NCBI GenBank assembly: GCA_964387825.1
Contig: CAYLWZ010000004.1
Span: forward strand, 1 to 56,731
DNA: 56,731 nt
From: an uncultured Candidatus Saccharibacteria bacterium
GTDB taxonomy: Bacteria > Patescibacteriota > Minisyncoccia > Minisyncoccales > GWA2-38-27
Direction: 5' to 3'
Part shown: positions 19,261-19,337 of the stretch, one piece after another
Layout of the letters: the number at the start of each line of letters is the position of its first letter
How positions within the stretch are numbered: position 1 is the stretch's first letter
Notes under the pieces: generated by a model
The model's database searches: none
Told to the model about the DNA's origin: nothing
The model's input: the letters and a program-made list of their open reading frames with translations, nothing else
Position numbers and translations under genes: made by a program

Positions 19261-19337
19261 TATAACCTATAACTTAAAACTTACAACTTACAACTTACAA
19301 CTTACAACTTATAACTTACAACTTATAACTTATAACT
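19261..19337. repeat. Tandem heptamer array (TA[C/T]AACT) x11
   Basis: Eleven 7-bp units filling the ileS-recO spacer and overlapping the ileS stop codon. Confidence 0.95.

Follow-up and report, generated by a model that had tools for sequence, protein, structure and literature searches.

Why should the spacer between two housekeeping genes consist, from end to end, of one heptamer repeated some eleven times? This question is raised by the junction of ileS and recO in a 56,731-nt stretch of DNA (hereafter the window; coordinates given without a contig prefix refer to it), which is contig C4 of G000, a 680-kb metagenome-assembled genome (MAG) originating from salt-marsh metagenomes. The genome comprises 39 contigs, is 97.6% complete and has a G+C content of about 36%; the relatives of its RecA, IleS and RpoC proteins are Patescibacteria (candidate phyla radiation, CPR) MAGs labelled Nealsonbacteria, Paceibacterota or 'Saccharibacteria'. 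An earlier note on this DNA had claimed that many unrelated tandem repeats in it share a 7-bp period, and had proposed one mechanism with a fixed 7-nt step that makes arrays from different seeds. As described below, the period-7 arrays are probably arms (some paired, others orphaned) that belong to a single class of hairpin elements, similar to the intervening sequences (IVSs) of 23S rRNA, which have spread recently and whose arms change in length by slippage.

The excess of period 7 extends over the whole genome. Unless exact runs are named, arrays were counted with Tandem Repeats Finder (TRF) at three or more copies per array, and the chance expectation was taken from genomes simulated under a third-order Markov model. 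G000 holds 218 arrays of period 7, as against about 5 expected, while periods 6, 8 and 9 are represented by 39, 29 and 29 arrays, respectively; 25 of the period-7 TRF rows lie inside the window. Counting exact runs of at least three copies gives 105 for period 7, and 2, 9 and 4 for periods 5, 6 and 8. Across the genome, period 7 thus clearly outnumbers periods 5, 6 and 8, and the abundance of 7-bp-period repeats claimed earlier is confirmed. In intergenic DNA, 218 period-7 runs of two or more copies were found (13.7 expected) and 78 of three or more (0.0 expected), with a shoulder at periods 8 and 9 that is far smaller than the period-7 peak. When intergenic DNA is autocorrelated, maxima appear at lags 7, 14, 21 and 28 and are gone after masking of the detected arrays; there is therefore no sea of hidden decayed arrays. 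The arrays take up about 1.3% of the G000 DNA, at about 3.2 arrays per 10 kb. As to the individual units named in the earlier note, TACAACT, ATCTAAT, TTTTCAA, TTTTGAA, TTCTTAA, ACTTGAA, AGCGAGC-type and AACGAAT arrays were all located, but TTTAGCA/TTTAACA was not found in the window as two or more tandem copies; TTTAGCA (3.6 copies) occurs on another G000 contig.

The arrays are distributed over more than 20 contigs, and 125 of the 218 fall in the 14% of G000 that is non-coding. Between co-directional genes, about one third of the arrays are located within 10 nt of the upstream stop codon, and a like share lie directly before the next start. Arrays were indeed seen to reach the ileS stop, the recA stop, and both the start and the stop of rpsF, as the earlier note had stated. 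For the ileS-recO junction, the array read on the coding (minus) strand is (GTTGTAA/GTTATAA)n; it provides the final codons of ileS together with the TAA stop, and the ATG of recO begins 6 nt past the array. Such positions at the junctions of housekeeping genes (ileS, recO, recA, rpsF and the ribosomal-protein operon) are unlike those of the simple sequence repeats (SSRs) at phase-variation loci, which are found in promoters or ORFs of surface or restriction genes and switch expression through a copy number that is polymorphic within populations.

The first clue to the nature of the arrays is that they come in inverted pairs. Among the 59 pairs of array neighbours no more than 120 nt apart, 50 match better when one unit is reverse-complemented than when both are read in the same direction, and 15 are exact complements, compared with 1.6% of random pairs. 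An inverted partner within 150 nt was found for 67 of the 218 arrays (5 in shuffled-unit controls), and within 700 nt for 85 (13 in the controls). For the 45 clearest inverted pairs, the folding z-score averages −5.

The second clue is a gene. The PF05635 (S23p) family of four-helix-bundle proteins was first found in the intervening sequences of 23S rRNA. G000 carries six genes of this 23S-rRNA-IVS type, none of them in the window, and this is the highest number among the 41 genomes compared (G000 and 40 relatives). Their scores, 49–133 bits, exceed the cut-off (33.8), and among solved structures the one nearest to their products is 2GSC, a homopentamer from Xanthomonas (E = 2e-19). All six lie between two inverted heptamer arrays, each cassette with one unit: GTATTTT, GAATTAC, ATAACTT, AAAAATC, AATTTTC or CTAATTT. 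The cassettes are inserted between protein-coding open reading frames (ORFs), run in the direction of their neighbours and do not lie in the 23S rRNA helix (25 or 45) that is the site of the rRNA IVSs; the two arms of one cassette have unequal copy numbers. In the relatives, 12 of the 20 PF05635 matches are also placed between inverted arrays, nine with 7-mers and three with 8-mers. Since the inverted-arm layout is also built of 8-mers, both around these genes of the relatives and within G000 itself, the strictly fixed 7-nt step proposed earlier does not hold. Directly outside an arm of two of the G000 cassettes (C13:1560-1640 and C13:3620-3660) there is a GC-rich hairpin (…GGGCGACCCACAGGTCGCCCCTACGAT…).

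The same architecture recurs without the gene. Two families of gene-less palindromic elements of about 140 nt were recognised, the G-type, (AATTTTG)n…(CAAAATT)n, with nine copies at 70–91% identity, and the C-type, with five copies, one pair of which is 94–96% identical although 26 kb apart. Not only the arms but also the non-repeat cores of the copies are homologous. Four of these elements were located in the window (Table 1); the C-type element at 11698-11830 is 76% identical, over its full length, to that at C2:39521. A partial copy lies within metG, where a block consisting of one C-type arm plus the inner non-array part of that arm is translated (…KIFNFQFSIFNKFSNPNFQ…) in a loop of variable length, with no clear net gain.

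The units of the remaining arrays are likewise far from a random assortment. Among the 208 free arrays there are 70 canonical units, as against 168 expected from random intergenic 7-mers, and 65 arrays are built of just the four most frequent units (17 expected). Sixty-two per cent of the free arrays are within one mismatch of one of the six cassette units of G000, compared with 27% for random 7-mers. The unit of the focal ileS-recO array is itself one mismatch away from the arm unit ATAACTT of the cassette at C2:5830-6123. The idea of unrelated repeats growing from different seeds thus has to be given up in view of the restricted vocabulary, the inverted pairs and the arms and elements dispersed as blocks. 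The idea of one mechanism survives in part: the arrays belong to one system, with a shared architecture and genomic niche, but do not come from different seeds.

Comparison with relatives shows when the arrays arrived. The ileS-recO spacer is 74 nt long and all array in G000, while in the relatives G012, G032 and G002 its length is 3, 6 and 10 nt, respectively. In the ribosomal-protein operon (C2:49.9-64.6 kb), most spacers are 75–420 nt long and array-filled, whereas those of the congener G002 are mostly 8–50 nt and array-free. The short (3–50 nt), array-free orthologous spacers of relatives indicate that the gain in the G000 lineage is recent. Arrays are especially concentrated in the S10/spc ribosomal-protein operon, with nearly all junctions array-filled in two genera (G000 C2:49900-64700 and G020 L116 9300-12300).

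These comparisons bear directly on the explanation of Mrazek et al. (2007), in which slippage within the footprint of the polymerase lets arrays expand where they stand, starting from seeds that occur there by chance. A heptamer excess in many bacteria, with a cause of this kind proposed, is described in the summary of that work contained in PMC4692102. Slippage is also consistent with several of our observations, including the difference in repeat number between the left and right arms of a cassette, the many solitary arrays, and the lack of any strand bias relative to transcription. Copy number also varies at the orthologous recA site, where G000 has 7 copies and the relative L002 has 3 (TTGGATA/TTAGATA), with none in three other relatives, L001, L003 and L004. 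However, no period-7 excess is seen in congeners or in members of the family whose replication genes are near-identical, and general footprint slippage is therefore disfavoured as its cause. Neither does growth from random seeds account for a restricted vocabulary with neighbours that are inverted complements, for arms and elements dispersed as blocks, or for a load that tracks a specific accessory gene (see below). Slippage probably alters the length of the arrays and does not explain their origin or distribution; as the whole explanation it is quite unlikely.

A different view would be that the arrays are host cis-elements selected in operon spacers, such as processing or stability stems, attenuators or sites bound by a nucleoid or RNA-binding protein, with the PF05635 genes merely lodging or being retained in the hairpins. 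The crowding of arrays between cistrons, where they reach the very stop and start codons, is what such elements would show, as is the filling of the ribosomal-protein operon in both G000 and G020, the latter having arrays without a PF05635 gene. It also agrees with this view that the free arrays show no preference for the units of their own cassettes. A regulatory role has moreover been proposed for the TAACTGA repeats upstream of starts in Beggiatoaceae (PMC4679880). Against it, the orthologous spacers of sister genomes manage without arrays, arm blocks land in coding loops as well (metG), and the near-identical copies at unrelated loci look like dispersal rather than convergent selection. 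No A/T strand bias of the arrays with respect to gene direction was found in G000, and there was no folding advantage for the sense strand: of 39 co-directional inverted pairs, 17 fold more stably as the sense strand and 22 as the antisense strand (p = 0.24). On the basis of this symmetry, selection acting on the RNA was rejected, and we regard the host cis-element explanation overall as unlikely.

Across the 41 genomes, with 10–40 kb sampled from each of the 40 relatives, heptamer density follows the copy number of PF05635 genes not adjoining a reverse transcriptase (RT) gene, with a Spearman rho of 0.64 (p = 5e-6); the mean density per 10 kb is 1.75 in genomes with PF05635 and 0.48 in those without, and in the latter the period-7 counts resemble the period-6 counts. 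A second set of 50 other genomes, reached via their recA loci, gives 60 arrays in 385 kb for PF05635 carriers and 14 in 433 kb for non-carriers (p = 0.003). Three other, unrelated CPR MAGs, L035, L032 and L051, are denser still near recA, with up to 14 arrays in 14 kb, and all of them carry 3–5 PF05635 genes. Of the candidate genes that the earlier note had suggested comparing with heptamer load (PolX, RT and four-helix-bundle proteins), only the last thus track it.

The templated or reiterative synthesis of 7-nt units that the earlier note had considered could be carried out by an RT, in the manner of telomerase or of diversity-generating retroelements (DGRs) with an Avd-type partner, or by PolX. 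Avd, the accessory protein of DGRs, is related to the PF05635 proteins (weak PF22296 matches), and G000 has three RT matches and one PolX. RT presence, however, is not linked to load across the 41 genomes (rho 0.15, p = 0.35), and PolX, found in 40 of the 41 whatever the load, is near-universal and therefore cannot explain a patchy trait; both were rejected as drivers of the arrays on these grounds. None of the six cassette genes in G000 adjoins an RT. Weak PF05635 matches that do (G021:C1, G015:C32, G023:C6, G022:C20, G017:C11 and G037:C7) look like DGR Avd, and no heptamer arms were found at the RT-adjacent matches of G021, G022 and G023, nor at G037 C7:2112, which passes the cut-off; the lack of arms sets these Avd-like copies apart as a second four-helix-bundle subfamily. 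Dozens of distinct units also speak against a single template, making this mode of synthesis extremely improbable. Two of the three RT matches in G000 are on contigs C22 and C39, whose G+C contents are 0.41 and 0.29; contigs C25, C33 and C34 range from 0.49 to 0.56, and all others from 0.35 to 0.37. These five short, atypical contigs may be mis-binned or mobile DNA.

Another competitor for the correlation is the Y1 (HUH) transposase. On this view the hairpins would resemble repetitive extragenic palindromic (REP) sequences or bacterial interspersed mosaic elements (BIMEs) and be moved by proteins like the REP-associated tyrosine transposases (RAYTs), which act on single-stranded DNA hairpins, and the link to PF05635 would be a by-product of co-occurrence. 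G000 has four RAYT-like genes (C5:41063-41836, C3:79838-80479, C8:16530-17225 and C11:16441-16896), the elements are hairpins without visible target duplications, and the RAYT-like count correlates with density (rho 0.49, p = 0.001). In addition, the exceptional genomes G020, G022 and G030 carry RAYT-like genes. However, RAYT-like and PF05635 copy numbers are themselves correlated across the relatives (rho 0.64); given PF05635, the partial correlation of the Y1 count with density falls to 0.13 (not significant), whereas that of PF05635 given Y1 remains at 0.49 (p = 0.001). Each RAYT-like gene is furthermore bracketed by a different palindrome of its own, for example GGGCGAGGGCAGACCTCGCCC, AGGGACAGTCAAGGGACAGTCCCTTGACTGTCCCT and CAATCTATTGATTTCGTAAATCAATAG, and not by heptamers. 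RAYT-like Y1 proteins were therefore rejected as the drivers, their correlation being explained by co-occurrence with PF05635 and their flanks carrying other palindromes; this explanation is very unlikely. RAYT-like genes were the only transposase-like genes found in G000, DDE families not having been searched for. The AGGGACAGTCA-type palindrome of the C3 RAYT-like copy occurs twice in the window, as 11-mer repeats at 24836-24891 and 33268-33302.

The reading of the arrays as arms of recently spread, IVS-like hairpin elements has to face a number of observations that do not favour it. About 60% of the arrays have no recognisable inverted partner, including the focal one, for which no complementary array is present anywhere in the window; lacking partners, the solitary arrays are tied to the cassettes only via the shared unit vocabulary and the genome-level correlation. 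That vocabulary, moreover, appears to be shared between genomes. When same-sized sets of cassette units from other genomes are used, 53% of the free arrays of G000 are matched, as compared with 62% for its own units, and the own- and cross-genome pair rates of 0.153 and 0.127 do not differ significantly (permutation p = 0.35). Since own units match no better than foreign ones, there is no evidence for cognate gene-array pairs, and the pairing of each cassette gene with free arrays of the same unit is unsupported in this own-versus-other test, despite the enrichment over random 7-mers. The results point to an arm-unit vocabulary common to the order and give no evidence of a private gene-to-array relation.

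The genome-level evidence also has its exceptions: G020 has 2.5 arrays per 10 kb, and 8-mers as well, yet no PF05635 match, while G001 has 2–3 PF05635 genes and little heptamer excess. The Spearman correlations over the 41 genomes, moreover, ignore phylogenetic kinship. As for mobility, neither a movement event nor an enzyme for the elements was seen, and comparisons of filled with empty sites (the operon spacers and ileS-recO) disclosed no target-site duplication. No 7-nt indels were found across 4–5 salt-marsh metagenome samples, in assembled (Logan) contigs that break at arrays and thus offer a weak test. The equal folding of sense and antisense strands, mentioned above, weighs on this side too, as does an in-frame TTCTTAA run in ileS (19773-19804), which is no insertion relative to the G003 orthologue; the absence of an insertion means that this run may be ancient or composition-driven.

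Taking these points into account, we still consider the hairpin-element explanation the probable one, and its steps can be outlined as follows. A full element would consist of a small PF05635 gene that has a heptamer array on either side, the two being inverted, and runs in the direction of the host operon, and the G000 complement would amount to six gene cassettes, about 45 gene-less hairpins (the two ~140-nt families included) and more than 100 solitary arrays. The elements would have recently colonised operon spacers, between a stop codon and the next ribosome-binding site, and at times loops inside genes. Slippage and deletion would afterwards make their arms longer or shorter or deprive them of a partner; solitary arrays, the focal one among them, would be arms that were orphaned or expanded excessively. 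In the operon transcript, the arms may pair and be cut by RNase III, a gene for which is present in G000, by analogy with the 23S IVSs.

The 7-nt (sometimes 8-nt) step would on this account be set by the biology of the element and not by the replicative polymerase. Its candidate sources are the footprint of a pentameric four-helix-bundle protein, or the geometry of the stem. The latter constraint is proposed because three 7-nt units equal two helical turns. A putative protein with a 7-nt binding footprint, as had been considered in the earlier note, is a possible source of the arrays. Array lengths in G000 (for example at 43698-43721 and 49720-49768) are unevenly distributed, with modes near 24, 31 and 49–55 nt and a dearth at 42–48 nt (5 arrays, as against 18 in the next 7-nt bin), and the arms flanking PF05635 genes cluster at about 4.0–5.0 or 7.4–8.0 copies. 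Though recognised post hoc, this pattern suggests a quantum of 21 nt, that is, three units or two helical turns.

The arrays and elements of the window are collected in Table 1.

Table 1. Heptamer arrays and related elements located in the window, in order of position.
Feature	Position	Strand	Remarks
C-type element arm inside metG	9509..9567	-	Translated (…KIFNFQFSIFNKFSNPNFQ…), variable-length loop; 85% identical to element positions 1-60
C-type palindromic element, gene-less	11698..11830		(AATTWTC)n ... (GAAAATT)n; fold -33 to -36 kcal/mol, z = -7
In-frame run CGAGCAG x3.4	18851..18874	-	Inside recO
Focal array, (TTACAAC/TTATAAC)x11.4	19260..19339		90% match; fills ileS-recO spacer
In-frame run TTCTTAA x4.6	19773..19804	-	84% match; inside ileS
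In-frame run ACTTGAA x4.6	31956..31987	-	76% match; inside polX
C-type palindromic element, gene-less	39468..39614		Inverted arms
G-type palindromic element, gene-less	43698..43849		(AATTTTG)3 ... (CAAAATT)3; fold -42 kcal/mol, z = -8
8-mer inverted pair	45759..45842		(ATTGTTAA)2.1 ... (TAGCAATT)3.2; second copy 40009-40088
(AATATCT)x9.4	48280..48342		Ends at rpsF start; unit as in recA arrays; inverted relative to 49655-49678
TAACGAA x2.1	rpsF stop		Array overlapping stop codon
(TAGATAT)x3.4	49655..49678		Inverted partner of recA-side array (inverted unit distance 0)
(ATCTAAT)x7.0, exact	49720..49768		Directly adjoins recA stop codon
G-type palindromic element, gene-less	53215..53353		Fills rpoC-ftsK spacer; fold -38 kcal/mol, z = -8

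Several of these features deserve a closer description. A terminator hairpin sits between the two arrays near recA (49655-49678 and 49720-49768), and the pair folds at −37 kcal/mol (z = −10). The rpsF-ssb-(rpsR) operon (48280-49678) is bracketed by inverted arrays of one unit, 9.4 copies of AATATCT upstream and 3.4 of TAGATAT downstream, which could form a long-range stem around about 1.3 kb of ordinary genes. The G-type element at 43698-43849 is followed after 18 nt by a tRNA-Leu(CAG) gene (43867-43951). For exact runs inside ORFs, the length distribution is bimodal, with a second mode at 27–34 nt. This might hint at insertions of +21 nt that keep the reading frame, but neither the ileS run, which is no insertion, nor the metG arm, with no clear net gain, bears this out. 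The window also contains a tmRNA gene at 25799-26206.

How do these elements relate to known systems? The closest likeness is to the ORF-bearing IVSs of 23S rRNA in Coxiella burnetii, Leptospira and Xanthomonas, where a PF05635 ORF lies within complementary, stem-forming ends, as it does in six of the six G000 cassettes, with an RNase III gene present in the genome. In Coxiella burnetii the stem of the 23S IVS, which carries an S23p ORF, contains tandem heptamers (GACAGAT, 2–4 copies) whose number varies between strains, for instance from 2 to 3, and RNase III cuts at the first heptamer repeat (PMC4990558). In contrast to these IVSs, the G000 cassettes lie between the protein genes of operons and share the genome with some 200 arrays and hairpins that have no gene.

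A resemblance to the short tandemly repeated repetitive (STRR) sequences of cyanobacteria, and to bacterial heptamer SSRs in general, is seen in the dispersed, mostly intergenic 7-nt arrays with several unit types per genome. The STRR consensus units, CCCCAGT, TTGGTCA and CAACAGT, are those of heterocystous cyanobacteria. The likeness is cross-phylum, since the host here belongs to the Patescibacteria, and it has its limits: the units of G000, an ultra-small CPR host, are A/T-rich and tied to inverted-pair hairpins and PF05635 content. None of them is identical to STRR1-3, GGGAATC or TAACTGA, and one is within a single mismatch of STRR2. An excess of heptamer tandem repeats was reportedly noted first in the STRR work of 1990 and again in a genome survey of 2007. 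To our knowledge there is no accepted cause for the bacterial heptamer excess, nor has a function been established for PF05635/S23p or for the rRNA IVSs. The general excess is that of Mrazek et al. (2007), for which we follow the summary given in PMC4692102.

In Xanthomonas, the GGGAATC arrays are intergenic, with 70–75 of them in convergent inverted pairs that are potential stem-loops, and species differ in the length of arrays that occupy conserved positions (Rehm et al. 2015, PMC4692102). Like the arrays of G000 they are thus inverted intergenic heptamer pairs, and Xanthomonas is also the source of the PF05635 structure 2GSC; in its account of the arrays that paper draws no link to four-helix-bundle genes (PMC4692102). 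The difference is that a single G-rich unit is involved there, read as forming G-quadruplexes, whereas G000 has dozens of A/T-rich units without such potential. MITEs (miniature transposable elements with inverted repeats) and the REP/BIME-RAYT systems share with our elements the small, palindromic, gene-less and dispersed form, the near-identical copies, and the presence of gene-bearing forms beside gene-less ones. They differ in that no transposase is found in or beside the G000 elements and no target duplication was seen, and in that the arms are tandem heptamers rather than unique terminal inverted repeats.

The bacterial heptamer excess, the STRR sequences, the inverted GGGAATC pairs of Xanthomonas and the heptamer-containing S23p IVS of Coxiella are all already in print, while we found no literature tying either Patescibacteria or PF05635 to genome-wide heptamer arrays. 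It is tempting to bring these together and to regard PF05635 pentamers and inverted 7-nt arrays as one genetic system that underlies both the heptamer SSR excess (STRR, Xanthomonas GGGAATC and CPR) and the ORF-bearing rRNA IVSs, but this wider proposal is tentative and, in our judgement, more probably wrong than right. According to it, the protein would putatively bind heptamer stems, or help to build or maintain them, and gene cassettes would seed the gene-less hairpins and orphan arrays at transcribed junctions of operons, so that this system rather than the footprint of a polymerase would account for the excess.

Taken together, G000 is an unusually clean case, in which the arrays appear as arms of hairpins, their abundance follows one accessory gene over about 90 genomes, and they have been gained recently in essential operons. 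An old descriptive puzzle, that of the heptamers, thereby becomes addressable by experiment, through binding of the protein to the repeats, RNase III processing, and gain and loss of the elements among sister strains. The finding also calls for caution in annotation, as the 'microsatellites' that CPR genomes carry between genes are structured and possibly mobile elements, which can extend or provide stop codons and insert into proteins.

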